From Pseudomonadota bacterium (lineage in GTDB: Bacteria > Pseudomonadota > Gammaproteobacteria > Steroidobacterales > Steroidobacteraceae): 64,000 nt of DNA. Position 1 is the first letter of the stretch, and the number at the start of each line of letters is the position of its first letter. Location: contig JANYAE010000128.1 in assembly GCA_025355105.1 (NCBI GenBank), positions 9,850-73,849 of the forward strand. The letters are read 5' to 3'. The notes below the pieces were generated by a model. That model was not told the origin of the DNA. It ran no database searches and saw only the letters and a list, made by a program, of their open reading frames with translations. A program made the position numbers and the translations under genes. Positions 10,779-56,784 of this stretch are shown here, piece by piece.

Positions 10779-10827
10779 CGGGCGGCGTGGCTGAGCGGCT
10801 GGCTTGCGGCCCGGGGGCGGACTAGCG

Positions 10828-14799: not shown

Positions 14800-14801
14800 C
14801 G

Positions 14802-20265: not shown

Positions 20266-20498
20266 CTACGCGCCGCGCGGGGCGCGGGCGACTCCGCTAG
20301 AATGTGCGGCGAGTCGGGCGGTCACCGTGGCGGGCGTCGCACGGTGCGCGACCTGGCCCGAGGGCACCTCCGCGGAAGCAAGGACAGGCTCCGTTGCCCC
20401 CCCTGACATGATCGTCGAGAAGCTTCCGTGGACCCGGTCTCAGATCTGCCACCGACGTTCTGTTAGCCTCTCAGTGGATATTGGACGGACAAAACCCG

Positions 20499-21113
20499 AT
20501 GTTACGGAATCTGGTACTGGTCGCGATGCTCGGCCTGCTGGCGAGCGGTGTGAGTCGCGCGCAGACGGGGCAGGCGGCAGGCGTCGCGCCGTCGCAGCCG
20601 GCCGCGGATGCGAATCAATACCAGATCGGTCCTGGCGACGTGGTGCAGGTGTTCGTCTGGCGCAATCCCGATCTCTCCGTCACGGTGCCGGTGCGCCCGG
20701 ACGGTCTGATCTCGACGCCGCTGGTCGAGAACATCGTCGCGGTCGGCCGCAGCCCGTCCGAGCTCGCGCGCGCCATCGAGGTGGTGCTGGCCGAGTTCAT
20801 CAAGTCGCCCAAGGTCAACATCATCGTCACGCAGCCGGCCGGCATCTTCACTCAGCTGAAGGTGGTCGGGCAGGTCGCGAAGCCGCAGGCCGTCCAGTAC
20901 CGGGACGGCATGACGGTTCTAGACGCGGTGCTGCAGGTCGGTGGCCTGACGCAGTTCGCGGCGGGCAATCGCGCCAGAATCATCCGCAAGGTCGGTGGCA
21001 AGGACACCGAGATCCGCGTCAAGCTCCGGGACCTGGTCGAGAAGGGCGACATGACGCAGAACCTCGCGTTGAAGCCCGGTGACGTGCTCGTCGTTCCCGA
21101 GTCACTGCTCTAG
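20499..21113 (+). CDS. Periplasmic/outer-membrane polysaccharide export protein (Wza/EpsE-like, short form)
   Basis: ATG 20499 gives the clean signal peptide MLRNLVLVAMLGLLASGVSRAQ. The Poly_export motif is YQIGPGDVVQVFVWRNPDLSVTVPVRPDGLISTPLV, followed by a SLBB-like segment. The ORF is open from 20481. Confidence 0.85.
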   Translation: MLRNLVLVAMLGLLASGVSRAQTGQAAGVAPSQPAADANQYQIGPGDVVQVFVWRNPDLSVTVPVRPDGLISTPLVENIVAVGRSPSELARAIEVVLAEFIKSPKVNIIVTQPAGIFTQLKVVGQVAKPQAVQYRDGMTVLDAVLQVGGLTQFAAGNRARIIRKVGGKDTEIRVKLRDLVEKGDMTQNLALKPGDVLVVPESLL

Positions 21114-21127
21114 CGCGCCACGATCTC

Positions 21128-22717
21128 ATGCTGCCCGCCATCGAATCGGCAGTGGATCGCGTACGCGGCGCGTGGCGCTTCCGCTGGCTCGGCCTGCTGA
21201 TCGCCACGGCGGTTTGCGTCGTGGCGTGGGGCATCGTCTTTCTGGTGCCGGACTCCTACCGCGCCTCGTCGCGCGTGTTCATCGATACCAACACGCCGCT
21301 CAGCCAGGTCACCCGCGGTATCGGCGGCGAGTCGGACGTCGAGAGCCAGATCGTCAAGGTGCGCCAGGCGCTGCTTGGCGGCCCGCAACTCGAGAAGGTG
21401 GCCGCCGACTCGGGCCTGCTGACCGGGGTCGTTGACCCGCGCAGCAGGGATCTGGTCATCGCCGACCTGCGCAAGCGCATCGAGATCACCAGCACCGCGA
21501 GCGTCGGGGCGAGCGTCTACGTGATCTCCTTCAAGGATCGCTCCCGCGACACGGCGTTGCGCGTCGTCGATCGCCTGCTCAAGACCTTCGTGCAGGGCAC
21601 GCTCACCGGCAAGCGTGAGGGCTCTGCACAGGCGCAGAACTTCCTCGTTTCGCAGATCGCCGAGCTTGAGCACCGCCTGTCGGCGAGCGAGGAACGACTG
21701 GCGGACTTCAAGAAGCGCAACGTCGGGCTGATGCCCGGTGCCCAGGGCGACTACTTCACGCGGCTGCAGGCCGAGATGGAGGCACTCGGCAAGGCCCAGT
21801 CGGCGGTCGGCCTCGCCACGCGCCGCCGTGACGAGCTGCGCCGCCAGCTGCGCGGCGAGGAGCCGGTCACGCCGCGCGGCACAAGCCTCGGATCGGCGAC
21901 GGGCGGGGCGCTGACGGGCGCCGGCACCGACACCGGGAGCCGCATCCGCGAGACGCAGGCACGGCTCGACGACCTGCTGCTGCGCTTCACCGACAAGCAC
22001 CCGGACGTCATCGCGATGCGCGCGACGCTCGAGGAGCTCAAGCTGCGCCAGCAGACGGAACTTGATGCGGTGAAGCGCGGCGATCCCGGCGCCATCGATC
22101 GCAGCGGCCTCGCGGCCAACCCCGTCTACCAGAGCCTGCAGCTGCAGTCGAACCAGGCCGAGGTTGATCTGGCCGCCGCCGAGGCCGACGTCGCCGACCG
22201 GCAGCACAAGATCGCGAGCCTGCGCAGCGTCGTCAATACCGCGCCGGAAGTGGAGGCGGAGTACGCGCGCCTCAACCGCGACTACGACGTCACCAAGGCG
22301 CAGTACCAGGCGCTGCTGGAGCGCCTCGAGCGGACCAAGCTTGGCGAGAACGCGCAGGAGACCGGAATCGTGCGTTTCGAGGTCATCGACCCGCCGAACG
22401 CACCCTACGACCCGGTGGCTCCGAATCGTCCGTTGCTGATCGCGCTGCTGTTGGCGTTCGGAATCGGCGCCGGCGGCATGGCGGCCTACCTGACCTCGGT
22501 GATGCGACCCGTGTTCAGCAACGTGCGGCAGCTCGCCGAGGTGACCCAGCTGCCGGTGCTCGGCGCGGTCAGCATGACGTGGCTCGAGGCGCACCGTGCG
22601 CGGCTGCGGATCGACGCGCTGCGCTACACCGGCGCGGTATTGGCGCTGTTCTTGGTCGCGGCCGTGATCGTCGTGCTGCAGTCGCGGATCGCGCATCTGG
22701 TGCGGGGCATCGCATGA
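21128..22717 (+). CDS. Polysaccharide chain-length determinant (Wzz/Wzc N-terminal-domain-like; EpsF-like)
   Basis: 529-aa ORF with an N-terminal TM (WLGLLIATAVCVVAWGIVFLV), a long coiled-coil periplasmic region, and C-terminal TMs (LLIALLLAFGIGAGGMAAYL; VLALFLVAAVIVVL). Confidence 0.8.
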   Translation: MLPAIESAVDRVRGAWRFRWLGLLIATAVCVVAWGIVFLVPDSYRASSRVFIDTNTPLSQVTRGIGGESDVESQIVKVRQALLGGPQLEKVAADSGLLTGVVDPRSRDLVIADLRKRIEITSTASVGASVYVISFKDRSRDTALRVVDRLLKTFVQGTLTGKREGSAQAQNFLVSQIAELEHRLSASEERLADFKKRNVGLMPGAQGDYFTRLQAEMEALGKAQSAVGLATRRRDELRRQLRGEEPVTPRGTSLGSATGGALTGAGTDTGSRIRETQARLDDLLLRFTDKHPDVIAMRATLEELKLRQQTELDAVKRGDPGAIDRSGLAANPVYQSLQLQSNQAEVDLAAAEADVADRQHKIASLRSVVNTAPEVEAEYARLNRDYDVTKAQYQALLERLERTKLGENAQETGIVRFEVIDPPNAPYDPVAPNRPLLIALLLAFGIGAGGMAAYLTSVMRPVFSNVRQLAEVTQLPVLGAVSMTWLEAHRARLRIDALRYTGAVLALFLVAAVIVVLQSRIAHLVRGIA

Positions 22718-23628
22718 GCTTCGTCGAGCAAGCGCTGAAGAAGATGCAAGCCGCGGCGCGTGGCGGCGGCGACGAAGCAGGGCCGCGCGCGATGCCGACA
22801 GGCCCGGTCGCGGCCCTCGGGCGTGCACCGGAGACGTCGATCGCCGCGGTCGGCCAGCGCCGCGCGGCCGCCGGCGGCGGCCGCATTCTCAACATCAACC
22901 GCGGCAATCTGCGCGCCGCAGGACTGATCCCGCCGGAGTCGCAGGAGCGCCAGCTGGCGCAGCAATATCGGCAGATCAAACGGCCACTGATCGCGAATGC
23001 GATCGGTCGCGGGACGCCGCGGCTCGACCGCGGCCAGCTGATCATGGTGGCGAGCGCGCTGCCCGGCGAAGGCAAGAGCTTCACCTCGCTCAATCTCGCG
23101 CTCAGCATCGCGATGGACAAGGACGTGCGGGTGCTGCTGATCGACGCCGACGTCGCCAAGCCGCGCATCAGCAGCTTGCTCAGCATCGACGGCGAGCGCG
23201 GACTGCTGGACGCGTTGCGCGAGCCCGCGGTCGAACTCGATGATCTGGTGGTGCCGACGGATATTCCGGGACTGTCGGTGCTGCCGAGCGGACGGCGCTC
23301 TGAACAGGCAACCGAACTGCTCGCCAGCGCGCGGATGGTGGAAGTGCTGCAGGGCTTGATCCAGCGCGACCCGAATCTCATCGTCGTGCTCGATTCGCCG
23401 CCGCTACTGCTGACCACCGAGTCGCAGGCGCTGGCGCAGGTGGCCGGCCAGATTCTCGTCGTGGTCCGGGCGGACGCCACGTCGCACCGTGAGGTGCTGG
23501 ATGCGCTCAGCTATCTCGCGAGCCGGCCGTGCGTCTCGCTGGTGCTCAACCAGAGCGTTTCCGCGGCAATGGCCGGCTACTACTACCACGGCTACGGCAC
23601 CCCGCCGGAGTCCAGCTCCGGCAGCTGA
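22714..23628 (+). CDS. BY-kinase-type tyrosine autokinase (EpsG-like; the cytoplasmic half of a split Wzc)
   Basis: ATG 22714 overlaps the upstream TGA (ATGA). Motifs are Walker A (ALPGEGKSFTSLNLA), Walker A' (VLLIDADVAKP) and Walker B (IVVLDSPPLL). The C-terminal Tyr cluster is MAGYYYHGYG. Confidence 0.8.
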   Translation: MSFVEQALKKMQAAARGGGDEAGPRAMPTGPVAALGRAPETSIAAVGQRRAAAGGGRILNINRGNLRAAGLIPPESQERQLAQQYRQIKRPLIANAIGRGTPRLDRGQLIMVASALPGEGKSFTSLNLALSIAMDKDVRVLLIDADVAKPRISSLLSIDGERGLLDALREPAVELDDLVVPTDIPGLSVLPSGRRSEQATELLASARMVEVLQGLIQRDPNLIVVLDSPPLLLTTESQALAQVAGQILVVVRADATSHREVLDALSYLASRPCVSLVLNQSVSAAMAGYYYHGYGTPPESSSGS

Positions 23629-24166: not shown

Positions 24167-24247
24167 TAGTGAGGGTGCCGAGGCGGGTTTCCGCAGAACG
24201 CGGAGTTGCCTTGGCATTGATCCTGATCCCCGTCGAGGAGCGTGCGC

Positions 24248-27200
24248 ATGGGCTTTCGTCAAATGGCGTCCTGGGTTCTGGTGGCGACGATGCTGGCGGT
24301 GTTGCCAGCGGCAGCCGACGCGTCCTGTGCCACGCCTGCCAACGCCATTGAGGCCGAGAATTGCCTGCCGGGCACGCCGGACACCGTCTGGGACATCCCG
24401 ACGAGCGACGCGGGCGACGCGACGATCCAGGGCTACGCGACCCAGATCAGCGTGACCCCGGGGAGCACGGTCAGCTTCAAGGTCAAGACGACGGCCAACG
24501 CGTACACGATGGACGTGTACCGGATGGGCTACTACCAGGGCAACGGCGCCCGCAAGGTCACGAGCCTGACCCCGTCCGTGCCGCTGCCGCAGGCTCAGCC
24601 CGCCTGCCTGACCGATGCCGCGACGAATCTGATCGATTGCGGCAACTGGGCCGTGTCGGCGTCGTGGGCAGTGCCGGCCAACGCGGTCTCCGGAATCTAC
24701 TTCGTCGTCCTCAAGCGCACCGACACCGGTGGCAAGAGCCACATGGTGTTCGTGGTCCGCGATGACACGAGCCATGCCGCGATTCTGTTCCAGGCCTCCG
24801 ACACCTCGTGGCAGGCCTACAACGACTACGGCGGCGAGAATTTCTACGGTTGCGGCGGCTTCAACCAGGCGTGCCGCGCCTTCAAAGTCAGCTACAACCG
24901 CCCGTTCAATACCCGCAGCTTCGAGCCGCAGACGTGGGTGTTCTCCGGCGAGTACCCGATGATTCGCTGGCTTGAGGCGAACAGCTACGACGTCAGCTAT
25001 TCGACCGCGACCGACACCGATCGCAACGGCGCGCTGCTGCTCAATCACAAGCTGTACCTGTCGAACGGCCACGACGAGTACTGGTCAGGCGCGGAACGCG
25101 CCAACGTCGAGGCGGCGCGCGCGGCCGGCGTCAACCTCGCGTTCTTCAGCAGCAATGCCATCTACTGGAAGACGCGTTGGGAGTCGAGCATCGACGGCTC
25201 GGGGACGCCGTACCGCACGCTCGTCTCGTACAAGGAGACCTGGTCGAACGCCAAGATCGATCCGAACGCCGCCTGGACCGGCACGTGGCGCGACCCGCGC
25301 TTCAGCCCGCCGTCTGACGGCGGCCGGCCCGAGAACGCGCTGATGGGCATGTTGTCGCGCTACGTGACCTCGGAGATCGGCGCGATCTCGGTCGCCCAGG
25401 CGGATGGTCAGTTGCGCTTCTGGCGCAATACGCCGGTGGCCTCGCTGCCGACCGGTGGTACGACGGCGCTGGCGCCGGGATCGCTCGGCGAAGAGGTTGA
25501 CATCGACGAGGACAACGGCTTCCGTCCTGCCGGCCTGATGCACCTGTCGACGACGCCGATCACCGGCAGCGACTGTCTGGTTGACTACGGCAACATCACC
25601 AGCACGTGCAGTTCGACGCACGCGGTCACCCTATACCGCCACTCGAGCGGCGCCCTGGTGCTCAGCACCGGCACCTACTGGTGGTCGTGGGGCCTCGACA
25701 CGAATCACGATCAGCCGGCGACCGGCGGCTCAACCGATTCGAGCATGCAGCAGGCGACGGTCAACTTCCTGGCCGACGTACGCATCCAGCCGGCCACCCT
25801 GCAGGCAGGCCTCGTTCTCGCGACCGCGTCGACCGACACGATCGCGCCGACCTCGCACATCAGCAGCCCGTCGGCCGGCGCAAGCTTTCCGGCCGGCGCG
25901 ACGGTGACGATCACCGGCACCGCGACCGACACGGGCGGCGTGGTCGCCGGCGTGGAAGTGTCGGTCGACGGCGGCGTCACCTGGCACCCGGCCTCCGGTC
26001 GGTCCAGCTGGAGCTACGCTTGGGCCGCCGCGGGGCTCGCGAACGCCTCGATCATGAGCCGCGCGGTCGACGACAGCGGCAACGTCGAGACGCCGGGGGC
26101 GGGCGTCAACGTCACGGTGAGCGGCGGCGGCTACAACATCTGGTCGCCGACGGCCAATCCTTCGGAGCCGCAGGCGCTGGCGTCCGGCGGACCGGACAAC
26201 CCGATCGAGGTCGGTGTGAAGTTCCGCGCCGACGTCCCGGGCACGATCAGCGGTATCCGCTTCTACAAGCTGGCGGCGAACGCCGGCACACACATCGGCA
26301 GTCTGTGGTCGGCGTCCGGTCAGCTGCTGGCGAGCGCGACCTTCACCAACGAAGCGTCCTCAGGCTGGCAGGAAGTGCATTTCGCGACGGCCGTCGCCAT
26401 CGCACCGAACACCGTCTACGTCGCCTCGTACCACTCGACCGGCGGCAACTACGCCGACACCATCAATTACTTCGTCGGCAACGGCACCGACACCCCGCCG
26501 CTGCACGCGCTGAGCAATACGGTCGGCGGCGGCAACGGCGTGTTCGCCTACGGCGCCACGAGCATCTTCCCGACCACCAGCTTCAGCGCGTCCAACTACT
26601 GGGTTGACGTCAGTTTCCAGCCTTCGGCGACGCTCGCATCGCTGGCCGTCACGCCGTCCAACCCGATCGTCGGGATCGGCAGTACCGTGCAGATGACCGC
26701 GACCGGCACCTACTCGGATGGTTCGACGCAGGACTTCTCGAACCTGGTCAGTTGGAGCTCATCCAACACTGCCGCAGCGACGGTCAGCAGCGGCGGTGTC
26801 GTGACCGGCGTGGCCAACGGTACGGCGACGATTTCAGCGTCGGTGTCCGGCCTGACAAGCTCGGTCGTCGCGACCGTCAAGGTCATCCCGGTGAGCGTGA
26901 CGACCACGACGCTGCCGGCCGCGAACCAGAATGCCGGCTACTCGGCGACGCTGGCCGGCACCGGTGGCACACCGCCGTACACCTGGTCGGCGGTCAATCT
27001 GCCGGCCGGCCTGACGCTGAACGCCGCAACCGGCGTCATCAGCGGCATGCCGACCGGCCCTGGCCCGTTCAACGTCACGGTGCAGATCACCGACTCGTCC
27101 CAGCCGGCGCAGACCGCGCCCGGCTCGGTGGCGCTCGCCGTGGCGCCTGCCGCGCTCGCTGCGTGGCCGGTGACGGCCGCGCCGACCGTCGCCGATGCGG

Positions 27201-30200
27201 GACCTGACAGCGCGGTCGAGCTGGGCGTGAAGTTCACCGTGGACGTGTCCGGATCGATCACCGGCGTGCGCTTCTATAAGTCCGCCGCCAACACCGGTAC
27301 GCACGTCGCGAACCTGTGGTCAGCGGCCGGCACGTTGCTCGCGAGCGCAAGCTTCGCGAACGAAAGTGCCTCCGGCTGGCAGCAGGCGAACTTCGCCGCG
27401 CCGGTGGCGGTCACTGCCGCCACCGTCTACGTCGCCTCGTACCACTCGACCAGCGGCCACTTCGCCCTCGATGCCAGCTATTTCGCGACGCAGGGCGTCG
27501 ACAACGCGCCGCTGCACCTGCTCGCGAACGGCGTGTCGGGCGCGGACGGCGTCTTCGCCTACGGCTCGGCGAGCGTGTTCCCGAGCTCGACGTACAACTC
27601 GAGCAACTACTGGGTCGACGTTGCGTTCCAGCGGCCGAATCCGACCTCGGTGTCGGTTGCGCCGACCAACGGCGTCGTGCAGCCGGGAACTACGCAGCAG
27701 TACAGCGCCACCGGCACCTATCCTGACGGCAGCAGCGGCGACGTCACGACCCAGGTGACCTGGACGTCCGCGAACACCGCGGTCGCCACCGTCAGCGCGA
27801 CCGGCGTGGTGCGAGGCATCAGCACCGGCACTTCGACGATCACGGCGTCGATCGGTGGTCTCGCGACTGCCGTCCCGGTCACGGTCAAGGTCATCCCGCT
27901 GGCCGTCGCAACGACGGCGCTGCCGGCGGCGAACCAGAACGCGGGCTACACGGCGCTCGTGTCCGGTATCGGCGGCACGGCGCCGTACAGCTGGGCGGCG
28001 GTCGGTGCGCTGCCCGCGGGCCTGACGCTGAACGCGACGACCGGTGCCATCAGCGGTACGCCGACCGCGGCCGGCACGTTCAGCATCGCGCTGCAGGTCT
28101 CCGATTCGGCGAGTCCGATTCAGACCGCCGCCGGTTCGGTGACGTTGACGGTCGCCGCCGGGGCGCTCAGCGGCTGGCCGCTCGCGGCGACCCCGGTGCT
28201 CGCCGACGCAGGCCCTGACGCGGCCGCCGAGCTCGGCGTGAAGTTCCGCACCGATTCTGACGGCACCGTGACCGGCGTCCGCTTCTACAAGTCGGCGGCC
28301 AACGTCGGCACGCATATTGCGAACCTGTGGACCTCGACGGGCACGCTGCTCGCGACGGCGACCTTCGTCAACGACAGCGCCTCAGGCTGGCAGCAAGCGA
28401 ACTTCGCGACGCCGGTCGCGGTGACCGCGAACACGGTCTACGTGGCGTCCTACCACGCGACCAGCGGCCACTACGCGCTTGATCAGAACTACTTTGCGGG
28501 CGCCGGAATCGACGCGCCGCCGGTGCACCTGCTGGCGGATGGTGTCTCCGGTCCGGATGGCGCGTACAGCTACGGTGCGACGAGCGCGTTCCCGGCGACG
28601 GGCTTCAAGGCCAGCAACTACTGGGTGGACGTTGCCTTTGCGCCCGGTGCGCCGACCGTCGCCACGGTGACCCTGCCGACCGCGACCCAGGCGGCCGGCT
28701 ACTCCGCGTCGCTGGCCGCGACCGGCGGACTGGCGCCGTATTCGTGGACCGCGACGAGCGCGCTGCCGGCAGGACTGTCAATGACGGCCGCCGGCAACCT
28801 GAGCGGCACGCCGACCACCGCCGGGTCCTCGAGCTTCACGGTCCAGGTGGCCGATGCGCAGAACCCCTCGAAGACCGGCAGCGCGAGCGTTTCGCTCGTC
28901 GTGGCAGCCGCGGGCTCGTCCGCCTGGGCGACCGCGGCGACTCCGACCGTCAGCGACGCCGGTCCCGACAGCCCGGTTGAGCTCGGCGTCAAGTTCCGCT
29001 CCGACGTGAGCGGCAATATCACCGGCGTGCGCTTCTACAAGTCGGTGGCGAACACCGGCACGCACGTGGCGAACCTGTGGACGACCTCCGGCACGCTGCT
29101 CGCAACGGCGACGTTCGGCAACGAGAGCGCATCCGGCTGGCAGCAGGCGAATTTCGCGAGCCCGGTGGCGATCACCGCCAACACCGATTACGTGGCCTCG
29201 TACCACACCAACGTCGGCCACTTCGCGGCAGACGGCGGCTTCTTCAGCGGCAAGGGCGTCGACAACGCGCCGCTGCACCTGCTCGCCGACGGCATCGACG
29301 GCGGCGACGGCGTGTTCAGCTACGGCGTCACGAGCACGCTGCCGGCGTCGACCTTCAACGCGACCAACTACTGGGTCGACGTGGCGTTCGCGGCCAACGC
29401 GCCGCCGCCGCCGCCGCCGCCTGACACGATTGCGCCGTCAGTCGCGATCTCGGCGCCGACCGCCGCAGCGACCTACACCGCGACCGCCGCGACACTGACG
29501 GTCGCCGGAACGGCCGCCGACAACGTCGGCGTCACGCAGGTCAGCTGGAGCAACAGCCTCGGCGGCTCCGGGACGGCGGCTGGCACCACGAGCTGGTCGG
29601 CGGCGGGCATCGTGCTGAAAGCAGGCAGCAACCTGATCACCGTGACGGCGAGCGACGCGGCCGGCAACCACTCGGCGGCGACGCTGTCGGTGAGCTACAC
29701 GCCGCCGGACACGACCGCGCCGACTGTGGCCATCACGGCGCCGACCAGCGCCGCGACGTTCAGCACCAGCACGGCGCCGCTGACGCTCGGCGGCACGGCC
29801 GCCGACAACGTCGGGGTGGTCGCGGTCAACTGGACCAACAGCCTCGGCGGGGCCGGCACGGCCACCGGTACGAGCGCCTGGAGCGTGCCGACGATCGCGC
29901 TGAAGTCGGGGCTCAACACGATCACCGTGACCGCGAGCGACGCCGCCGGCAACGTCGCCACGGCGACCCTGGGCGTGACCTACACGGCGCCGCCGGACAC
30001 GACCCCGCCGACCATCGCGATCACCAGCCCGACGACGGCGGCGACGTTCACGACCACCGCCGGGTCGCTGACGGTCGGCGGCACGGCCTCGGACAACGTC
30101 GGCGTCGCCTCGGTCACCTGGGTGAACAGTCGTGGCGGCAGCGGCACGGCGAGCGGCACCACCAGCTGGTCGGCAGCAGGCGTCGCGCTGCAGTCCGGCT

Positions 30201-30913
30201 CGAACGTGATCACCGTGACGGCGAAAGATGCTGCCGGCAACAGCAAGACGGCGACGCTCACGGTCACCTTCAATCCGCCGGCCGGCTATGGCCTGGTTGC
30301 CGCGTACTCGTTCAACGAGGGCACGGGCGTGACGGTCAACGACGCGTCGGGCAACGGCAATACTGGCTCGATCACCGGCGCGACCTGGACCATGAACGGT
30401 CGCTTCGGCAAGGCGCTGGTGTTCAACGGCACGAATTCGCGGGTGTTCGTCAACGCGTCCTCGAGCCTCAACTTCACCGCCGGCATGAGCCTGGAAGCGT
30501 GGGTGTTTCCGACGGCGGCGCAGACCGGCAATCGCACCATCATCTACCGTGAGCAGGATGTCGCGTACCTGCGCGCCAGCCAGGCGGCGCGGGCGCGCGT
30601 CCCGGCAGGCGGGGGCACGATCGGCGGGACGGTGCTGCAGACGACCGGCAGCACCGCGCTGGCGCTCAATACGTGGCAGTTCCTGACGGTGACCTACGAC
30701 GGCACGATCCTGCGTCTGTACGTGAACGGTACGCAGGTGGCGAGCGGCACGGCGACCGGTGCGCTCGCGACCAGCCTCAATCCGCTGTGGATCGGCGGCA
30801 ACAATCCGTTCGGCGAGTACTTCCAGGGTCGGATCGACGAAGTGCGCGTCTACAACCGTGCGCTGAGCGCGGCGGAGATCGCCGTCGACCAGACAACGGC
30901 GATCACGCCTTAA
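24248..30913 (+). CDS. Giant secreted multidomain protein. Domain order: N,N-dimethylformamidase-large-subunit-like domain, Ig-like domain, 4x DUF4082-type modules interleaved with Big_2-like and 'putative Ig' domains, three tandem Ig-like repeats, then a C-terminal LamG/ConA-like domain.
   Basis: SD GAGGAG (24235-24240) lies 7 nt before ATG 24248; the ORF is open from GTG 24242. The signal peptide is MGFRQMASWVLVATMLAVLPAAADA. N-domain motifs are AENCLPGTP, YRMGYYQGNGARK and SNGHDEYWS. DUF4082 cores (GPDxxxELGVKF...GVRFYK...GTHxANLW...SGWQQANF...VYVASYH...NYWVDVAF) lie at 26186-26617, 27200-27628, 28211-28639 and 28961-29389. A Pro7 linker lies at 29402-29422. The LamG-like tail has LVFNG..., LEAWVFP, WQFLTVTYDG..LRLYVNG and GRIDEVRVYNRALS. 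Confidence 0.85.
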   Translation: MGFRQMASWVLVATMLAVLPAAADASCATPANAIEAENCLPGTPDTVWDIPTSDAGDATIQGYATQISVTPGSTVSFKVKTTANAYTMDVYRMGYYQGNGARKVTSLTPSVPLPQAQPACLTDAATNLIDCGNWAVSASWAVPANAVSGIYFVVLKRTDTGGKSHMVFVVRDDTSHAAILFQASDTSWQAYNDYGGENFYGCGGFNQACRAFKVSYNRPFNTRSFEPQTWVFSGEYPMIRWLEANSYDVSYSTATDTDRNGALLLNHKLYLSNGHDEYWSGAERANVEAARAAGVNLAFFSSNAIYWKTRWESSIDGSGTPYRTLVSYKETWSNAKIDPNAAWTGTWRDPRFSPPSDGGRPENALMGMLSRYVTSEIGAISVAQADGQLRFWRNTPVASLPTGGTTALAPGSLGEEVDIDEDNGFRPAGLMHLSTTPITGSDCLVDYGNITSTCSSTHAVTLYRHSSGALVLSTGTYWWSWGLDTNHDQPATGGSTDSSMQQATVNFLADVRIQPATLQAGLVLATASTDTIAPTSHISSPSAGASFPAGATVTITGTATDTGGVVAGVEVSVDGGVTWHPASGRSSWSYAWAAAGLANASIMSRAVDDSGNVETPGAGVNVTVSGGGYNIWSPTANPSEPQALASGGPDNPIEVGVKFRADVPGTISGIRFYKLAANAGTHIGSLWSASGQLLASATFTNEASSGWQEVHFATAVAIAPNTVYVASYHSTGGNYADTINYFVGNGTDTPPLHALSNTVGGGNGVFAYGATSIFPTTSFSASNYWVDVSFQPSATLASLAVTPSNPIVGIGSTVQMTATGTYSDGSTQDFSNLVSWSSSNTAAATVSSGGVVTGVANGTATISASVSGLTSSVVATVKVIPVSVTTTTLPAANQNAGYSATLAGTGGTPPYTWSAVNLPAGLTLNAATGVISGMPTGPGPFNVTVQITDSSQPAQTAPGSVALAVAPAALAAWPVTAAPTVADAGPDSAVELGVKFTVDVSGSITGVRFYKSAANTGTHVANLWSAAGTLLASASFANESASGWQQANFAAPVAVTAATVYVASYHSTSGHFALDASYFATQGVDNAPLHLLANGVSGADGVFAYGSASVFPSSTYNSSNYWVDVAFQRPNPTSVSVAPTNGVVQPGTTQQYSATGTYPDGSSGDVTTQVTWTSANTAVATVSATGVVRGISTGTSTITASIGGLATAVPVTVKVIPLAVATTALPAANQNAGYTALVSGIGGTAPYSWAAVGALPAGLTLNATTGAISGTPTAAGTFSIALQVSDSASPIQTAAGSVTLTVAAGALSGWPLAATPVLADAGPDAAAELGVKFRTDSDGTVTGVRFYKSAANVGTHIANLWTSTGTLLATATFVNDSASGWQQANFATPVAVTANTVYVASYHATSGHYALDQNYFAGAGIDAPPVHLLADGVSGPDGAYSYGATSAFPATGFKASNYWVDVAFAPGAPTVATVTLPTATQAAGYSASLAATGGLAPYSWTATSALPAGLSMTAAGNLSGTPTTAGSSSFTVQVADAQNPSKTGSASVSLVVAAAGSSAWATAATPTVSDAGPDSPVELGVKFRSDVSGNITGVRFYKSVANTGTHVANLWTTSGTLLATATFGNESASGWQQANFASPVAITANTDYVASYHTNVGHFAADGGFFSGKGVDNAPLHLLADGIDGGDGVFSYGVTSTLPASTFNATNYWVDVAFAANAPPPPPPPDTIAPSVAISAPTAAATYTATAATLTVAGTAADNVGVTQVSWSNSLGGSGTAAGTTSWSAAGIVLKAGSNLITVTASDAAGNHSAATLSVSYTPPDTTAPTVAITAPTSAATFSTSTAPLTLGGTAADNVGVVAVNWTNSLGGAGTATGTSAWSVPTIALKSGLNTITVTASDAAGNVATATLGVTYTAPPDTTPPTIAITSPTTAATFTTTAGSLTVGGTASDNVGVASVTWVNSRGGSGTASGTTSWSAAGVALQSGSNVITVTAKDAAGNSKTATLTVTFNPPAGYGLVAAYSFNEGTGVTVNDASGNGNTGSITGATWTMNGRFGKALVFNGTNSRVFVNASSSLNFTAGMSLEAWVFPTAAQTGNRTIIYREQDVAYLRASQAARARVPAGGGTIGGTVLQTTGSTALALNTWQFLTVTYDGTILRLYVNGTQVASGTATGALATSLNPLWIGGNNPFGEYFQGRIDEVRVYNRALSAAEIAVDQTTAITP
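26186..29389 (+). repeat. Intragenic array of four ~430-nt DUF4082-type module repeats with spacer Ig-type domains
   Basis: Core copies lie at 26186-26617, 27200-27628, 28211-28639 and 28961-29389, giving a periodicity of 1014, 1011 and 750 nt. The first two spacers contain Big_2-like plus 'TLPAANQNAGY...PPYxW...LPAGLTLN' domains. The third spacer has only the latter. Confidence 0.8.
29423..30280 (+). repeat. Three tandem 95-96-codon Ig-like repeats inside the giant gene
   Basis: Units lie at 29423-29707, 29708-29995 and 29996-30280. Each reads DT(I/T)(A/P)PxxAIxxPTxAATxxTxxxxLTxxGTAxDNVGVxxVxWxNSxGGxGTAxGTxxWSxxxxxLxxGxNxITVTAxDAAGN... Confidence 0.85.
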
Positions 30914-31181: not shown

Positions 31182-33941
31182 ATGATGTCACGTCATTTCA
31201 CACTGAGAATCTGCGGCCTCGTCGCCGGCGTCGCGATCGGCGCCGCCGCCGTCCCGGCGCTCGCGCAAACGACGCTGATCGGCAGCTCGACGATCACCTC
31301 GAGCACCGACCAGAACGCGGCCGGACAGGCTGAGGCCTTCACGGCGGTGGCAGCGGCGACCGGCAGCGTCAGCACGATCAGCGTCTACATCGCCGCGGGC
31401 TCCGCCGCGAACCGGATCGTCGTCGGGCTGTACGCGGGAACGGCCACCGCGCCAACGACGCTGCTCGGCCAGGGGTCGCTGTCGGCGCCGGTGGCCGGTC
31501 AGTGGAACACGGTGCCGCTGACGACACCCGCGGCGGTGACCTCGGGAACGAGCTACTGGATCGCGCTGCTCAGCCCGGCGGCTGCGGGGGCGGTCGTGTT
31601 CCGCGACAAGTCCGGCGGCACGCGGTCCGTGACGAGTTCATCGAAGAGCCTGACGACTCTGCCAACCGCCTGGACCAGCGGCACGGCGTACACGGACAGC
31701 CCGCTTGCCGCGTACGGCGCAACGGCTGCGTCGCCGAATCCGATTCTCAGCGTCGCTCCGACGACGATCGCGTTTTCCGCACTTGCCGGCGGCAGCAATC
31801 CGCCACCGGCCGCGCTGCAGGTCACCAACGCCGGCTCCGGTAGTCTCAGCTTCACCGCCTCGAGCGATTCGTCGTGGCTGGCGGTCAGCCCGGCGTCGGG
31901 CACGGCGCCGGCCTCGCTGCAGGTGGCCGCGACTTCCACCGGGCTGGTCGTCGGCAGCTACGCCGGCAACGTGACGGTGACGTCCAGCGGCGTGCAGGGT
32001 TCGCCGAAGACGATCGCCGTGAACCTGTCGGTCAACTCGGCCGCCGGTACGTCTGCCGACTGGCTGACCGGCTTCCACGACCCGGAGCGCAGCAACAACG
32101 CCTCCGCCGAGACGACCATCACGACCGCGACGGCCAAGAACCTCGCGCCGCTGTGGGCGACCACTCTCGACGGCAAAATCACCTCGCAGCCGCTGTACGC
32201 CGGCAGCCTCACGGTCGCCGGCGGGACGCACAACGTCGTGTTTGCGGCGACCGACGCGAACAGCCTGTTCGCGGTCGACGCGGACCTCGGCAGCGTGCTT
32301 TGGCAGCGCAATTTCGGCGCGCAAGCCAACAACATCTCGATTCCCGGAGGCTTCGGCATCATCGGGCCGCCGGTCATCGACCGCGCGAACGGCCGGCTGT
32401 TCCTTGTATCCGACGACGGCCTGCTACATACCGTGGCGCTTGCCACCGGTACCGACCTCGCAGCCGCGCTCAGCGTGATCGCCCAGCCTTTGACCAACAA
32501 AGTCTGGGGTGCGCTCAACAAGCTCGGCAACAATCTCTACATCGCGACCGGTAGCGACTGCTGCGACACGCAGCCCTGGTCCGGGCAGGTCATCCGCGTC
32601 GACGTCTCCGGCGCGGCCCCGGTGCTCGGCAACCTCGTCTACGCGGTGACTGGCCTGACGGGCAACGACCGCGGTGGCGGCATCTGGGGCTACGGCGGCG
32701 TGTCGATCGACTCCGCAACCGGCCAGGTGCTCGCGGCGTCCGGCTCCGACGTCAATAGTGGCTACACGCCGAACGCCAACCGCGTCATCGCCTACGATTC
32801 GACCCTGAACGTGCTCGGTACCTTCGTACCGTCGCATCCGACCAGCTACCTGTGCCAGAGCGCACCGTGTGACGTTGACTTCGGCGCGACACCGACCGTG
32901 TTCCAGCCCTCCGGCTGCCCGACGATGGCCGCGGTGGGCAACAAGAACGGCTTCCTGTACGTGCTGCGGACCGCCGACTTGGCCGCGAGCCTGCCGGCAC
33001 AGCAGGCCATCCAGCTCAACGTCGCGAGCGACTCGCTCGGCAACGGTGGCATCGGTGGCAACCCGGCCTATTGGTCCGGCGGTCGCATGCTGTTCGTCGG
33101 CGATACCGGGCCGGGCTTCGGCGGCGTCGCCGCTGGTGTGGTCGGCCTGACGATCGGCGCGGCGCCAGCCTGCACCGTCGCGCCCGCCTGGAGCGTGACG
33201 CTCGGCGGCGCCAACTCGCCGAACAGCGTTCCGCTGGTGGCCAACGGCGTCGTCTTCATCGGCGAGGGCGACAACGGCCGCGTCCACGCCTACGACGGCG
33301 CGAGCGGCGCGGAGCTCTGGAACAGTGGCTCGACCGTCGGGGTCGCAACCTTCGCCTCGCCGATGGTGGCGGCCGGCAAGCTGTTCGTCGGCTCGTGGGA
33401 CGGCTTTGCGTCGAGCAGCGCGGGCACGCTGCGCGCGTTCGCGCCGTCAGTCGCCACCGGTTGCTCCTCCGGCGTGCCGTCGGTGCAGCTGCTCGGCGAC
33501 TCGACGATCGGCGCTAACGACGACTCGAACTCGCTCGGCGCTCCGGAGGCCTTTCAGGTCACGGCGACCAACTGCGGCAACATCGGCTCGATCTCGCTGT
33601 ACGTCGCTCCGAACTCCACCGCCGGCACGATCGTCGTCGGGCTGTACACCGATTCCGCCGGCCATCCGGGCGCGCTGCTCGCGCAGGGCTCGGTCTCGGC
33701 CGCGGCGCTCGGGGCGTGGAACACGATCACCATCCCGAAGGTCGCGGTGACGACCAACACGCCGTACTGGATCGCGGTCCTCGGGACGCAGAGCGGCACC
33801 GTCCATTTCCGCGATCGCCAGGGCGGCTGCTCGAGCGAGGCCAGCGCGGTCAACGGTTTGACGGCCCTGCCGGCAACCTGGACGAGCGGGACGCGCTATC
33901 CGGACTGCCCGTTGTCCGCCTACGGTTCCTCGGTGCCCTAA
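31182..33941 (+). CDS. Secreted protein with a PQQ/BamB-like beta-propeller core, flanked by two homologous ~150-aa beta-sandwich (DUF4082-like) domains, plus an Ig/BACON-like domain
   Basis: SD AAGGGGA lies 9 nt before ATG 31182. The signal peptide is MMSRHFTLRICGLVAGVAIGAAAVPALA/Q. The N-domain (31269-31718) and C-domain (33483-33938) align along their whole length (e.g. ISVYIAAGS..IVVGLYAG...LLGQGS...GQWNTV...SYWIALL...FRDKSGG...LPTAWTSGT.Y.D.PLAAYG vs ISLYVAPNS..IVVGLYTD...LLAQGS...GAWNTI...PYWIAVL...FRDRQGG...LPATWTSGTRYPDCPLSAYG). The propeller-type segment has NVVFAATDANSLFAVDADLGSVLWQ, LFLVSDDGLLHTVALATG and NGFLYVL. Confidence 0.8.
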   Translation: MMSRHFTLRICGLVAGVAIGAAAVPALAQTTLIGSSTITSSTDQNAAGQAEAFTAVAAATGSVSTISVYIAAGSAANRIVVGLYAGTATAPTTLLGQGSLSAPVAGQWNTVPLTTPAAVTSGTSYWIALLSPAAAGAVVFRDKSGGTRSVTSSSKSLTTLPTAWTSGTAYTDSPLAAYGATAASPNPILSVAPTTIAFSALAGGSNPPPAALQVTNAGSGSLSFTASSDSSWLAVSPASGTAPASLQVAATSTGLVVGSYAGNVTVTSSGVQGSPKTIAVNLSVNSAAGTSADWLTGFHDPERSNNASAETTITTATAKNLAPLWATTLDGKITSQPLYAGSLTVAGGTHNVVFAATDANSLFAVDADLGSVLWQRNFGAQANNISIPGGFGIIGPPVIDRANGRLFLVSDDGLLHTVALATGTDLAAALSVIAQPLTNKVWGALNKLGNNLYIATGSDCCDTQPWSGQVIRVDVSGAAPVLGNLVYAVTGLTGNDRGGGIWGYGGVSIDSATGQVLAASGSDVNSGYTPNANRVIAYDSTLNVLGTFVPSHPTSYLCQSAPCDVDFGATPTVFQPSGCPTMAAVGNKNGFLYVLRTADLAASLPAQQAIQLNVASDSLGNGGIGGNPAYWSGGRMLFVGDTGPGFGGVAAGVVGLTIGAAPACTVAPAWSVTLGGANSPNSVPLVANGVVFIGEGDNGRVHAYDGASGAELWNSGSTVGVATFASPMVAAGKLFVGSWDGFASSSAGTLRAFAPSVATGCSSGVPSVQLLGDSTIGANDDSNSLGAPEAFQVTATNCGNIGSISLYVAPNSTAGTIVVGLYTDSAGHPGALLAQGSVSAAALGAWNTITIPKVAVTTNTPYWIAVLGTQSGTVHFRDRQGGCSSEASAVNGLTALPATWTSGTRYPDCPLSAYGSSVP

Positions 33942-35287: not shown

Positions 35288-36811
35288 TCAGGCCTTGTGG
35301 CCGACGAGCCGTCCCGCCGCCGTCGCGAGGGCCGCCCGCTGCGGCCGGTCCAGGCACAGCCTGGCGGCGACGATGCAATAGACGACCAGCGCCGCGGCAA
35401 CCTCGGCAATCAGCGTCAGCCAGGAGACCGGAGGGAGCGCGGCCTTGGCCGCGACGATCAGCGCCGCCGCGGGCACGATGCTCGCGAACGCCGGCAGAAA
35501 CGCCTGTCGCAGGTAGTGGCCGATCGAGATCCCGGCGAAGCGCGTCACCAGCAGCGGTACGAACAGCATCGAGGCCAGGACCTCCGGCACCGCGGTGCCC
35601 CAGGCTGCGCCGAGGATGCCGTAGGAGGGCAGCAGCGCGACCGATATCGCGACCTTTAGCGCAGCCTCGCCGAGCAGCACGAACGCCAGGTAGCGATGGC
35701 GATTGAGCCCGTACAGCACGGCGCCGGCCGGGAACTGTGCCATCGCGACGGTCTGCGACAACGTGAGGATGATCAGCACCGTGCCGCTTTCGGTGGCAAA
35801 TCGTGGCCCCATCCACAGCGTCAGGAACTCGCGTCCGAGCAGCGTGAACAACGCGGCGGCCGGCAGGATCACGGCCAGCGCGTAGCGCGTGCCGAAGGTC
35901 AGCAGATTGCGCAGCCGGTCACCTTCGCTGCTCGCTTCGAGGCTGCTGGCGGCCGGGCTGAAGACGTTGCCGAAGCCGTAAGCCAGCTGTCGCAGGTAGC
36001 GGACCAGGTTATTGGCGACCGCGAAGCGGGTGATGGCCAGCGTCGGCAGGAACAGGCCGATCAGGATGGAGTCGCTGTCGTAAAGGACCCGGGTGCCGAG
36101 CGCAATGACTGCGCTCCACAGCCCGTAGCCGTAGATCTTGCCGAGGATCGTCGGGTTCACCGCGCGACGGTCGAGCGAAAGCCACGGCAGACCGCGGTGG
36201 CACGCGACCGCCATGGTCACCATCATCAGTAGTTCCGAGGCGAGGCCGACGGCCGCGAGCGCCAGCAGTTTCTGGCTGTTCAGCAGCATGATCACGGTGA
36301 GCGCCGTGCGCAACAGGCTGAAGCCGATCGAGATGGCGTTCGCCACCTCGTAGCGCTGCAGCCCGGTCACGAAGCCCTCGAATACGCCACCCGGGAACTT
36401 GAGCGCGAGATTCAAGCCGACGATCAGCAGCACGAACCGCGCCTCGCTGGAGATCTCCGCCGGGATCGTGAACAGCTGCGGCAGGAACACGGCCGTCACA
36501 GCGACCAGGGCGAGAACCAGCAGGCCGATCGCCGAGTAGAGCGCCAGCGTCGTCGAAAACAGGCTACGCAAGCGCTCGCGGTCGTCGGCGGCGTGGTACT
36601 GCGAGACGTACTTGACGATGGAGGAGCGGACGCCGAAGTCGAGCAGGTTGCCGTAACCGACCAGCGAGACCACCAGCGTCCAGATCCCGTACAGGCTGTC
36701 GCCGAGGCGATGCACCATGAACGGCAGCATGAAGAAGCCGATCGCAATGCTGACCGCGAGGTTGGCCCAATTGGAGAAGATGTTCCTGGCGATGACCCGC
36801 GCGGTGCTCAT
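35288..36811 (-). CDS. Wzx-type oligosaccharide/polysaccharide flippase (MOP superfamily)
   Basis: 507-aa ORF with about 12-14 TM helices. The N-terminus is typical: IARNIFSNWANLAVSIAIGFFMLPFMVHRLGDSLYGIWTLVVSLVGY. Its ATG overlaps the upstream TGA (ATGA at 36808-36811). Confidence 0.8.
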   Translation of the reverse strand: MSTARVIARNIFSNWANLAVSIAIGFFMLPFMVHRLGDSLYGIWTLVVSLVGYGNLLDFGVRSSIVKYVSQYHAADDRERLRSLFSTTLALYSAIGLLVLALVAVTAVFLPQLFTIPAEISSEARFVLLIVGLNLALKFPGGVFEGFVTGLQRYEVANAISIGFSLLRTALTVIMLLNSQKLLALAAVGLASELLMMVTMAVACHRGLPWLSLDRRAVNPTILGKIYGYGLWSAVIALGTRVLYDSDSILIGLFLPTLAITRFAVANNLVRYLRQLAYGFGNVFSPAASSLEASSEGDRLRNLLTFGTRYALAVILPAAALFTLLGREFLTLWMGPRFATESGTVLIILTLSQTVAMAQFPAGAVLYGLNRHRYLAFVLLGEAALKVAISVALLPSYGILGAAWGTAVPEVLASMLFVPLLVTRFAGISIGHYLRQAFLPAFASIVPAAALIVAAKAALPPVSWLTLIAEVAAALVVYCIVAARLCLDRPQRAALATAAGRLVGHKA

Positions 36812-38973: not shown

Positions 38974-39981
38974 CTAGGCGAGCGGTACCGGCACGCCGTT
39001 CTGCTTCAGCGACTTCTGCGCCGCCTCCAGCACCCTGATCACCCGCAGGCCGTCGCGGCCATCGCTGGTTGGGGTCTTGCGGTCGCGAACGCATTCCAGG
39101 AAGTGGGTGCACTCCAGCTGCAGCGGCTCGCCGATCTTGAGGTGCGGGATCGTGATGTCGCCGAAGCGCAGCGTCACGTACTCCGCGAAACTGCTGTAGT
39201 CGGGGTTGGTCGAAGCGCCCTTGTCGTAGATGCGCAGCTTCTCGGTGCCTTCGACGTCGTCGAACACGGCCATCTTCTGGCTGCCGACGATCGTCATCTT
39301 GCGGATCTTGTGCGGGTCGAGCCAGCTGACATGCACGTGGGCCATGCGCTTGTCACCGAAGTTGAGCGTCAGGAACACCACGTCCTCGATTCCGGGCTGC
39401 AGGTAGCACTGGCCGCGCGCCGACACGTCGGTTGGCTCGCCGCCGAGCAAGTAGAGAATCGACGAGATGTCGTGCGGCGCGAAGTTCCAGAGTGCGTTCT
39501 CGTCGCCGCGTACGGTGCCGAGGTTCACCCGCTGGTTGTAAATGTAGTAGATGTCGCCGAGCTCTTTCGATTCGATCATCTGCTTGAGGCGATTGACGAC
39601 CGGATGGTACTCGAGCAGGTGGCCGACCATCAGAATCCGCGCGCGCTCGTCGGCCAGCCGGATCAGGTCCTCCGCCTCAGCCGTCGACAGCGTGAACGGC
39701 TTTTCGACGTAGACATCCTTGCCGGCGAGCAACGCCGCCTTGCACAGCGGATAGTGCGACGGCGCGGTGGTCGCGATCACGATGGCGTGCAGCGCCGCGT
39801 CCTCGAGCATGTCCTCAAAGCGCGTCGTCATCGTCGCGCCGGGCAGCGCCGGCTGCATCTGGCGCAGCTTCTTCTCGTCGAGGTCGCAGACCGTCTTCAG
39901 GTGACAGCGCGGATTCTGGTGGTAATTGCGCGCCAGGTTCTTACCCCAGCCGCCGATTCCGACCAAGCCAACTTCGATCAT
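38974..39981 (-). CDS. Gfo/Idh/MocA-family NAD-dependent sugar-nucleotide oxidoreductase (WlbA/WbpB/GnnA-like 3-dehydrogenase candidate)
   Basis: The true start is MIEVGLVGIGGWGKNLARNY (Rossmann GxGxxG) at ATG 39981. The ORF-track extension to 40275 is Arg-rich junk that overlaps the upstream gene. Confidence 0.75.
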   Translation of the reverse strand: MIEVGLVGIGGWGKNLARNYHQNPRCHLKTVCDLDEKKLRQMQPALPGATMTTRFEDMLEDAALHAIVIATTAPSHYPLCKAALLAGKDVYVEKPFTLSTAEAEDLIRLADERARILMVGHLLEYHPVVNRLKQMIESKELGDIYYIYNQRVNLGTVRGDENALWNFAPHDISSILYLLGGEPTDVSARGQCYLQPGIEDVVFLTLNFGDKRMAHVHVSWLDPHKIRKMTIVGSQKMAVFDDVEGTEKLRIYDKGASTNPDYSSFAEYVTLRFGDITIPHLKIGEPLQLECTHFLECVRDRKTPTSDGRDGLRVIRVLEAAQKSLKQNGVPVPLA

Positions 39982-40004
39982 GACTGGACTCCTGCAGATT
40001 CTGG

Positions 40005-42382: not shown

Positions 42383-42394
42383 GATGAGCTCTCC

Positions 42395-48565: not shown

Positions 48566-48572
48566 TCAGCGC
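48559..48572. repeat. Perfect 14-bp palindrome formed by two abutting convergent stop codons
   Basis: GCGCTGA|TCAGCGC: TGA (48563-48565) of the plus-strand gene is directly followed by TCA (48566-48568), the TGA of glrR on the minus strand. The intergenic distance is zero. Confidence 0.9.
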
Positions 48573-49924: not shown

Positions 49925-49945
49925 CTTGAGCTCCGCCAGTCCGAT

Positions 49946-52053: not shown

Positions 52054-52134
52054 GATATCAGTGTCACCCGCTGCGGATGGCCGGGTGCAAGCCGCGCTCG
52101 AAAGTGCGTGACGCCCGGGACCGAACGCGGCCGC

Positions 52135-53142: not shown

Positions 53143-53251
53143 CCTGTCCCTGGTTGTGACCCCGCGAGGATAGCAACCTCCGCTGACGCTGGCGTGCGAC
53201 CGGCGCCGCAGTTTCGCCGGCCCTCCCGGCCGCCTTCGGCATAATCAGGCC

Positions 53252-54253: not shown

Positions 54254-54285
54254 TTCTGGGGTTCGACGTGAGGGGTTGCGGCGGC

Positions 54286-54969: not shown

Positions 54970-56784
<1,815 letters not shown>

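Follow-up and report, generated by a model that had tools for sequence, protein, structure and literature searches.

The gene at positions 24248–30913 (+ strand) of the 64,000-nucleotide stretch analysed here (the window; contig JANYAE010000128.1 of a Steroidobacteraceae bacterium) encodes a predicted exported protein of 2,221 residues, which probably couples an amide-cutting head to a series of binding modules, with the amino-sugar polysaccharide produced by neighbouring genes as its target. The head has the fold of the large subunit of N,N-dimethylformamidase (DMFase) and its relatives recur in several phyla beside genes for sugar-nucleotide synthesis and glycan assembly. We consider it likely that the protein is an active exported enzyme functionally tied to glycan assembly. 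The more specific proposal, that it is an exported metallo-amidohydrolase that would remove N-acyl groups from an amino-sugar glycan while held there by several binding modules, we put forward tentatively, with somewhat less than even confidence. A known but rare catalytic fold would then have been put to new use in a modular enzyme that is exported and tied to glycan loci, and not in this genome alone: judged by its homologues, the protein is one of thousands of relatives and no peculiarity of its genome.

The putative catalytic head

Residues 27–520 (24326–25807, +) form the head, an Ig-like domain I followed by an α/β/α catalytic domain III, as delimited by Pfam, hhalign, AlphaFold2 (AF2) modelling and Foldseek. 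The Pfam family DMFA2_C matches residues 87–487 with 326.5 bits against a cut-off of 27 (E 3.7e-97, 372 of 374 model positions), and a search of PDB sequences with the head returns only N-acetyl-(R)-β-phenylalanine acylase and the DMFase large subunit. The sequences of these two enzymes were rebuilt from HMMER alignments of a B. vietnamiensis homologue, and hhalign aligns them over 432 columns to a head profile of 19 sequences (A1), with 98.4% probability and an E-value of 4.9e-15. The AF2 model of residues 27–625 (pLDDT 87.8, pTM 0.91) leads to the same two enzymes. In Foldseek its catalytic part finds only the acylase (8i5a, 8huy, 8i59) and DMFase (6lvb, 6lvd, 6lve), at E-values of 3e-18 to 2e-16 (best 8i5a, 3.4e-18, and 6lvb, 5.5e-17), while matches to sulfite oxidase and fn3-like domains are due to the trailing Ig domain. 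Profile, model and fold search all support the DMFase-like N-terminal domain that an initial annotation of this stretch had recognised from its motifs.

According to the alignment, the head keeps DMFase domain I (Ig-like) and domain III (α/β/α, ThuA/GATase1-like). It lacks the pentraxin-like domain II, some 260 residues long, and query residues ∼91–123 (profile positions 65–97, offset 26) bridge acylase residues 54–336. A tblastn search of the window (best E 0.5) and of 83 related loci found no homologue of the DMFase small subunit; its single divergent query was a 132-residue ‘hypothetical’ protein encoded upstream of the B. vietnamiensis large subunit and assumed to be its small subunit.

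The Fe(III) ligands of DMFase are Y399, Y440 and E521, and the mutants Y440A, E521A, H519A, N547A and E657A are all inactive, N547 being the proposed oxyanion stabiliser and E657 the proposed catalytic base (PMC7686228). All six of these metal-ligand or mutagenesis-essential residues are present in the head by hhalign. The iron ligands Y399 and Y440 correspond to Y191 and Y200 (24818–24847, +), the essential H519 and the iron ligand E521 to H275 and E277 of a GHDEYW motif (25067–25084, +), N547 to N303 (25154–25156, +) and E657 to E416 (25493–25495, +). Among 117 heads Y200 is conserved in 113, and Y191, H275, E277, N303 and E416 each in 116. Since the two-Tyr-one-Glu site is complete and the His, Asn and Glu are kept with it, we infer that the head would be an active, metal-dependent C–N amidohydrolase. 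The sole head in which Y, Y, H and E are all lost (it reads W/H/E/S) is one of two heads in the tandem-head protein P0013 (P and L numbers are our labels for proteins and loci). This decayed copy is likely a pseudo-enzyme, the second head offering redundancy of the kind that would let an active site decay. A pair of heads, within one protein or encoded by adjacent genes, occurs in some relatives (P0013, P0009; L029, L036).

Heads are 47–76% identical across Acidobacteriota, Actinomycetota, Pseudomonadota, Verrucomicrobiota and Cyanobacteria, and conservation is far higher in the head than in any other part of the protein. The alignments point to strong purifying selection on the head, in a pattern that fits an enzyme and not a scaffold. 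The Big_7 Ig-like domain found by Pfam after the head (residues 534–600, 25847–26047, +) always follows it, and is part of the conserved head unit in 120 of the 120 top homologues.

This conservation bears on a different view, in which the protein is mainly structural (an adhesin, a matrix scaffold or a glycosylation target of the neighbouring sugar genes) and the head is a binding or pseudo-enzyme domain. About three-quarters of the protein, which is rich in Ala, Thr, Ser and Gly, does consist of Ig-like, β-sandwich and lectin modules. A Wzy_C/O-antigen-ligase-like gene in the window (7283–8725) weakly matches ‘putative O-glycosylation ligase, exosortase A system-associated’, and other secreted LamG/PKD/fn3 proteins lie nearby in 24 of 80 loci compared (the best 80 of at least 588 reference-genome loci, from several phyla). 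A structural role is nevertheless improbable, given that across phyla at least 96% of heads retain the six catalytic or metal residues, that the Y/Y/H/E tetrad is lost only where a second head exists, and that no other part of the protein is nearly so well conserved. A repeat-adhesin model also fares poorly, Ca_tandemer reaching 23.9 bits against a cut-off of 50 in a protein with a catalytic-type head. The suggestion in the initial annotation of a glycan-modifying machine rather than a generic adhesin gains weight from the six retained DMFase residues, and from same-strand head genes inside sugar-nucleotide cassettes, described below.

Accessory modules, export and gene integrity

The modules behind the head are dominated by DUF4082 (PF13313), which Pfam finds in four stretches (625.9 bits in total against a cut-off of 28.4, E 9e-191) and whose repeat boundaries were fixed by an internal phmmer search. 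All features lie on the + strand. DUF4082 module 1 (residues 633–791, 26144–26620) is followed by Big_2 (798–875) and He_PIG (882–957) domains at 26639–27118, module 2 (967–1128, 27146–27631) by a second Big_2 (1133–1203) and He_PIG (1220–1303) pair at 27644–28156, and module 3 (1305–1464, 28160–28639) by a single He_PIG domain (1468–1552, 28649–28903). After module 4 (1556–1714, 28913–29389) come a Pro7 linker (1719–1725, 29402–29422), three tandem Ig-like repeats of the Glucodextran_B/Big_7 type (1730–1816, 1827–1911 and 1921–2009, 29435–30274) and a C-terminal Laminin_G_3/ConA-like lectin domain (LamG; 2060–2212, 30425–30883, E 3.4e-32). By these matches the protein is a bona fide member of both DMFA2_C (PF20254) and DUF4082. 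The initial annotation had read this layout from the translation: an Ig-like domain after the head, four DUF4082 modules interleaved with Big_2 and Ig domains, then the Pro7 linker, three Ig-like repeats and LamG domain. The profile scan matches every domain it named, and the motifs it quoted for the head and for DUF4082 are all found in the translation.

DUF4082 module 2, modelled by AF2 from 15 sequences (A2), is a confidently predicted all-β sandwich (pLDDT 90.3), to which the other copies are 55–71% identical in protein sequence. In the module 21 positions do not vary, R, H, W, Q, N and D residues among them. Foldseek matches in the PDB are marginal, the best being a cyanophage capsid protein (E 2.8e-4, TM 0.62) and PHR domains (4e-4), with further weak matches to a mycobacteriophage central fibre, a phage tailspike and glycosidases bearing carbohydrate-binding modules (CBMs). 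Matches to CBM6/35 are weak (E 0.03–0.15, TM 0.2–0.4) and are outscored by the PHR and phage capsid/tail domains. Among predicted viral structures the top match reaches an E-value of 2.8e-9 and a TM of 0.78, followed by many actinophage minor tail proteins and collagen-repeat tail-fibre proteins. Searched against PDB sequences, a single module gave nothing, and the DUF4082 profile gave just spurious short matches to designed WD-repeat proteins. By analogy, DUF4082 would be a ligand-binding module, probably for a surface glycan, and the C-terminal LamG domain has a lectin-type fold. There are 3–4 DUF4082 copies in 100 of the 120 closest relatives, and 2–8 in the rest.

These modules also enter the argument for a protein that cuts the glycan backbone and not amide side groups, whether to depolymerise the glycan, to edit chain length or to attack the exopolysaccharide (EPS) of competitors, with the chemistry supplied by the head or by DUF4082. 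The gene adjoins genes for chain-length control in a locus with a heparinase II/III-like gene, polar and aromatic residues are numerous among the invariant positions of DUF4082, and its weak structural matches include the phage tailspike and the CBM-bearing glycosidases. Pfam and NCBIfam scans, however, detect no glycoside-hydrolase or lyase family in the protein, amide hydrolysis is the only known chemistry of the head’s fold with these residues, and a small sandwich in multiple copies is typical of binding modules. We therefore regard backbone cutting as very improbable.

Head and DUF4082 are sometimes fused to galactose-oxidase-like (Glyoxal_oxid_N, GO-like E-set, Kelch), CopC, PhoD/purple-acid-phosphatase-like or F5/8 type C domains (P0060, P0016, P0037, P0053, P0084, P0039), and these fusions hint at larger families of modular surface-glycan enzymes. 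Nor is the domain order fixed in the family: in many Pseudomonadota relatives the head is internal, starting at about residue 1,000–1,400 after Big_5 and DUF4082 (L007, L014, L018, L032, L035, L046 and others).

The N-terminus (MGFRQMASWVLVATMLAVLPAAADA/SC) reads by eye as a Sec-type signal peptide of residues 1–25 (24248–24322, +), as the initial annotation also had it, with a basic n-region, a hydrophobic core and an A-x-A site (A-D-A/S cleavage). A hydrophobic N-terminal segment is present in 69 of 69 homologues whose head is N-terminal. The Cys pairs 27/39 and 120/131, conserved in about 80–98% of heads, fit disulfides of an extracytoplasmic protein. Inspection of the sequence, with Pfam and NCBIfam scans, gave no PEP-CTERM, type IX secretion or RTX-type signal in the 2,221-residue protein; PEP_exosort_dom has no Pfam match in it, and its C-terminus is the LamG domain, ending ...DQTTAITP. 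Although the surrounding locus is of the XrtA type, the protein is by these scans not a PEP-CTERM cargo, and no recognisable repeat adhesin.

The gene itself is a single stop-free open reading frame (ORF; + strand, 24242 or 24248 to 30913), giving 2,221 residues plus a stop from the ATG at 24248. A Shine-Dalgarno sequence read from the DNA, GAGGAG (24235–24240, +), lies 7 nt ahead of this ATG, in keeping with the uninterrupted 6.7-kb frame and good ribosome-binding site first described. The GTG at 24242 is an unlikely start with a spacing of 1 nt to GAGGAG, and the 2,221-residue product is therefore the sensible one. Third-position GC (GC3) is 0.90 throughout, like that of other real genes in this window of 69% GC. 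Scans for sigma-70 promoters and terminators in both intergenic regions flanking 24248–30913 found nothing, and the sigma-54 consensus occurs 21 times in the window against 22 expected, with no match upstream of the gene.

With four plus three internal repeats, a frame of this length could in principle be an artefact, either by assembly collapse or expansion of repeats, the concern raised at first annotation, or by fusion of separate genes. The internal repeat copies are only 61–80% identical in DNA (73–75% among the three tandem Ig-like repeats), too divergent for an assembly artefact, and GC3 stays at 0.90 over the whole frame. Public data hold an identical protein (P0001) and a colinear relative of 2,215 residues at 68% identity (P0002), and hundreds of relatives have the same architecture. 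The divergent repeats, P0001 and the colinear P0002 together exclude an assembly artefact as far as sequence analysis allows, and we consider the chance of an artefact of either kind negligible.

Glycan loci around the head gene

The family is large. Among 8,000 candidates scored with the whole protein, 6,222 are relatives at E ≤ 1e-20, and the head alone finds 2,939 clusters (50% identity) at E ≤ 1e-30 and 9,246 at E ≤ 1e-3. The closest genome matches are metagenome-assembled genomes of Burkholderiales and other Pseudomonadota, with about 60–64% head identity, and Desulfopila with 68%. Nearly all complete head proteins in the 80 loci carry one to five DUF4082 modules; three are without. Gene calls in these loci came from a simple ORF and GC3 heuristic and are approximate; neighbours were screened with the EPS proteins of the window, and by all-against-all clustering with Pfam annotation of cluster representatives.

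Glycan-assembly genes lie within 10 kb of the head gene in 46 of the 80 loci, and in 38 of the 60 with good flanks. The most frequent neighbour is a cluster of DegT aminotransferase, hexapeptide transferase and GFO oxidoreductase genes, present in 36 loci (32 of the 60 with good flanks) and spread over 11 of 29 Acidobacteriota, 14 of 28 Actinomycetota and 10 of 15 Pseudomonadota loci. A short-chain dehydrogenase/reductase (SDR) epimerase or dehydratase follows with 24 loci, then Bac_transf (15), Wzx flippase (14), Wzy_C (6), tyrosine kinase (6), PCP chain-length determinant (4), AsnB (2) and Wza (0), and several glycosyltransferase clusters recur too. The linkage is tight: in 12 cases the gene directly next to the head gene is a hexapeptide transferase. 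Genes in the order Hex-GFO-DegT-Hex(-Epi-DegT) border the head gene in L014, L018, L028, L029, L035, L047 and others, and in L041, L049, L054, L056, L061 and L082, actinobacterial and acidobacterial loci among them, the cassette encloses the head gene on the same strand. The same type of cassette also stands beside head genes in L001 and L083, and four contexts with precomputed Pfam labels (those of P0002, P0022, P0116 and P0036) agree on the glycan linkage. Family-wide, the linkage is thus to cassettes of GFO, DegT and hexapeptide acetyltransferase and to Wzx/Wzy assembly genes. The initial annotation had made its reading depend on a conserved tie to polysaccharide loci, which is seen in 46 of 80 loci. 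It had also proposed to look for enrichment beside Wza, Wzc and AsnB-type genes, and this specific linkage we reject on the counts of zero, six and two for Wza, tyrosine kinase and AsnB.

In the window, the gene sits within a long EPS locus of the XrtA/PEP-CTERM type, as assigned by Pfam and NCBIfam. Upstream are genes for a GT2 and a GT4 glycosyltransferase, the Wzy_C protein, two AsnB-type amidotransferases, two GT4s and a heparinase II/III-like protein, and then an export module (20481–23628, +) of a Poly_export/SLBB (Wza-like) protein, an XrtA-system chain-length determinant (TIGR03007, 422 bits against a cut-off of 279) and an XrtA-associated tyrosine autokinase (TIGR03018, 230.4 bits against 230.65). 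The AsnB-type proteins (10804–12735 and 14355–16661, +) match the XrtA/PEP-CTERM system amidotransferase best, below its cut-off, and they and the heparinase II/III-like gene (16658–19024, +) are interleaved with GT4 genes. Downstream on the same strand follow a 919-residue secreted BACON and β-propeller protein and a GT2. On the opposite strand are a flippase-like protein, an unknown protein and a sugar-nucleotide cassette, and then an amine-oxidase-like flavoprotein, an SDR dehydratase/epimerase and a GT2. The placement first described, between a polysaccharide export module and glycosyltransferases, is therefore accurate, with the Wza-like, chain-length and tyrosine-kinase genes upstream and GT2 and sugar-nucleotide genes downstream.

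The cassette (38974–42988, −), 8 kb downstream of the head gene, encodes four enzymes. The GFO oxidoreductase matches UDP-GlcNAc 3-dehydrogenase best, with a score below cut-off, and the WecB 2-epimerase passes its cut-off; the other two are a DegT aminotransferase and a NeuD/PglB-type hexapeptide N-acetyltransferase. In the WbpB/WbpE/WbpD pathway an oxidoreductase-transaminase-acetyltransferase trio turns UDP-GlcNAc(A) into a 2,3-diacetamido-2,3-dideoxy sugar, and from the family membership of its proteins the cassette in the window may well make a sugar of this diacetamido type. The right end of the locus is syntenic with the loci of P0002 and P0022.

Taken together, we propose that the amino-sugar cassette would supply the acetamido groups on which the head acts. 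Once the polymer has crossed the inner membrane, the head would hydrolyse an N-acyl group, most likely acetamido and possibly formamido, of the amino-sugar-rich polysaccharide made by the locus, and partial de-N-acylation would change the charge and adhesiveness of the polymer. The four DUF4082 modules and the C-terminal LamG domain, spaced by Ig-like domains, may tether the enzyme to the polymer or the cell surface by several weak contacts.

The same active site could instead serve a different amide: a carboxamide or amino-acid amide decoration added by the two AsnB-type amidotransferases of the locus, an amide in a peptide or in peptidoglycan, an intermediate linked to a lipid, or small amides taken from the environment for their nitrogen. 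The conserved catalytic residues are compatible with any of these, two XrtA-type AsnB-like amidotransferases lie upstream in the window, and 34 of the 80 loci are without nearby glycan genes. Both characterised relatives, moreover, cleave small soluble amides, a formamide in DMFase and, by its name, an N-acetyl amide in the acylase. Yet AsnB-like neighbours occur in 2 of 80 loci against 36 with an acetamido-sugar cassette, and a nitrogen scavenger is not expected inside sugar-nucleotide operons, or with one to five β-sandwich modules and a lectin domain. We think such a substrate rather unlikely.

Several points nonetheless weigh against de-N-acylation of an exported amino-sugar glycan. The linkage is frequent and not universal, as the 34 loci without glycan genes within 10 kb show. 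The counts are inflated, the 80 loci being the best of their set and phylogenetically related, and a cassette enrichment of about 20-fold or greater is an estimate from general knowledge, taking a few DegT genes per genome. In L001 and L083 de-N-acetylation could already be provided for by a CE4-type Polysacc_deac_1 protein encoded there. DMFase is inactive unless its small subunit is present, and the tblastn searches above found no such subunit here; that the six residues cluster in space would follow from the homology alignment. In the PDB, DUF4082 has only marginal matches (lowest E 2.8e-4), and no ligand is proven for the phage proteins that it resembles. A Sec signal reaches only the periplasm of a diderm cell, and no outer-membrane secretion signal was identified. 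Finally, a literature search on the function of DUF4082 or of this head sub-family found nothing, with no experimental datum for any member.

Other features of the locus deserve mention. The 919-residue neighbour (31182–33941, +) has a signal-peptide-like N-terminus, BACON_2 and a PQQ/BamB-like β-propeller between two similar terminal modules of about 130 residues, which score 31 bits with NCBIfam ‘choice-of-anchor R’ (cut-off 30) and, weakly, 32 bits with Pfam DUF4082. We rejected it as a DUF4082 protein, as profile-profile comparison is not significant (probability 1%); a relative lies near the head gene in one of the 80 loci (L021). A flavin-dependent amine-oxidase-like protein (42990–44363, −; PRK07233, 449 bits, cut-off 252) is encoded between the hexapeptide acetyltransferase and the SDR dehydratase, and a DAO-type flavoprotein gene adjoins the head gene in L001 and lies near it in L085. 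A block of sigma-54 response regulator, small ORF, histidine kinase, SDR epimerase (GalE), APH phosphotransferase and BipA (48566–56784) is syntenic with L001 (20101–26648) and L083 (23054–28448); its regulator scores below the cut-off of the PEP-CTERM-box model. No exosortase or PEP-CTERM protein was identified in the window, and the related locus L083 has a PEP_exosort_dom protein. Five ORFs with GC3 of 0.80–0.90 have no Pfam match (3892–5295, −; 6171–7346, +; 9345–10778, +; 36808–38436, −; 56813–58243, +), nor an NCBIfam match where tried, and the four of them inside the EPS locus may be polymerases, membrane proteins or new families. Just past the EPS region are a 1,228-residue PAS/GAF/GGDEF/EAL protein of cyclic-di-GMP turnover (58360–62046, +) and an N-formylglutamate amidohydrolase (62117–62980, +).

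Significance and comparison with known systems

Whether several familiar biofilm polysaccharides adhere to cells and surfaces depends on their partial de-N-acetylation, and all enzymes known to us for this step belong to one family, carbohydrate esterase family 4 (CE4). If our proposal is right, a different catalyst, unrelated to CE4 and built around a rare two-Tyr-one-Glu iron site, would do this work in soil and water bacteria from no fewer than four phyla. Its targets would be diacetamido-sugar-rich glycans, whose processing after assembly has hardly been described. DUF4082 would gain a function, as would some 3,000 protein clusters that at present are without a functional name or are called ‘N,N-dimethylformamidase’ after a man-made solvent. 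Carried furthest, head and DUF4082 would define a widespread class of extracellular, iron-dependent (two-Tyr-one-carboxylate) de-N-acylases that remodel exported diacetamido-sugar glycans, the head as a new carbohydrate-esterase-type family unrelated to CE4 and DUF4082 as a new CBM family for such glycans; this generalisation is possible but doubtful. The family name can mislead: in at least one genome paper (10.1101/2021.04.09.439258), N,N-dimethylformamidase (EC 3.5.1.56) annotations in Acidobacteria are taken to indicate assimilation of N,N-dimethylformamide (DMF).

The DMFase large subunit of Paracoccus sp. DMF (PDB 6lvb; PMC7686228) shares with the head its domains I and III and the counterparts of its iron ligands and essential residues, at a Foldseek sequence identity of 13–16%. 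It differs in having the pentraxin-like domain II (residues 74–337) and a small subunit, both absent from the head protein. DMFase is cytoplasmic and encoded in a catabolic locus, whereas the head protein is predicted to be exported, has conserved Cys pairs, lies in a glycan locus and is fused to more than 1,600 residues of β-sandwich modules. Without domain II and the small subunit, and with its predicted export and glycan context, the protein is not a dimethylformamidase (EC 3.5.1.56) in the strict sense, and the latter two features would make DMF an unlikely natural substrate.

The best match in both sequence and structure is N-acetyl-(R)-β-phenylalanine acylase (PDB 8huy, 8i59, 8i5a; hmmsearch 6e-15, Foldseek 3e-18), which by its name removes N-acetyl from an amine, the type of bond we propose for the head. 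This acylase is a soluble protein of about 770 residues with a domain II and a small-molecule substrate, and its active site was compared through the alignment only.

In its accessory modules, the product of 24248–30913 is typical of the proteins that NCBI names ‘DUF4082 domain-containing protein’, most of its closest relatives carrying 3–4 modules and the same head, while the domain order with the LamG tail is common only to P0002 and a few others. In its proposed role, it resembles the CE4 de-N-acetylases. PgaB, IcaB, PelA and Agd3 are exported, encoded in EPS loci, and partly de-N-acetylate their polymer during or after export, and PgaB and Agd3 carry an extra glycan-binding domain. CE4 enzymes act through a NodB domain with a Zn/Co His-His-Asp site, and Pfam and NCBIfam scans of the 2,221-residue protein give no match to NodB/Polysacc_deac_1, so that it is not a CE4 member. 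The fold and metal site of the head are unrelated to those of CE4, and the likeness would be an analogy of function only.

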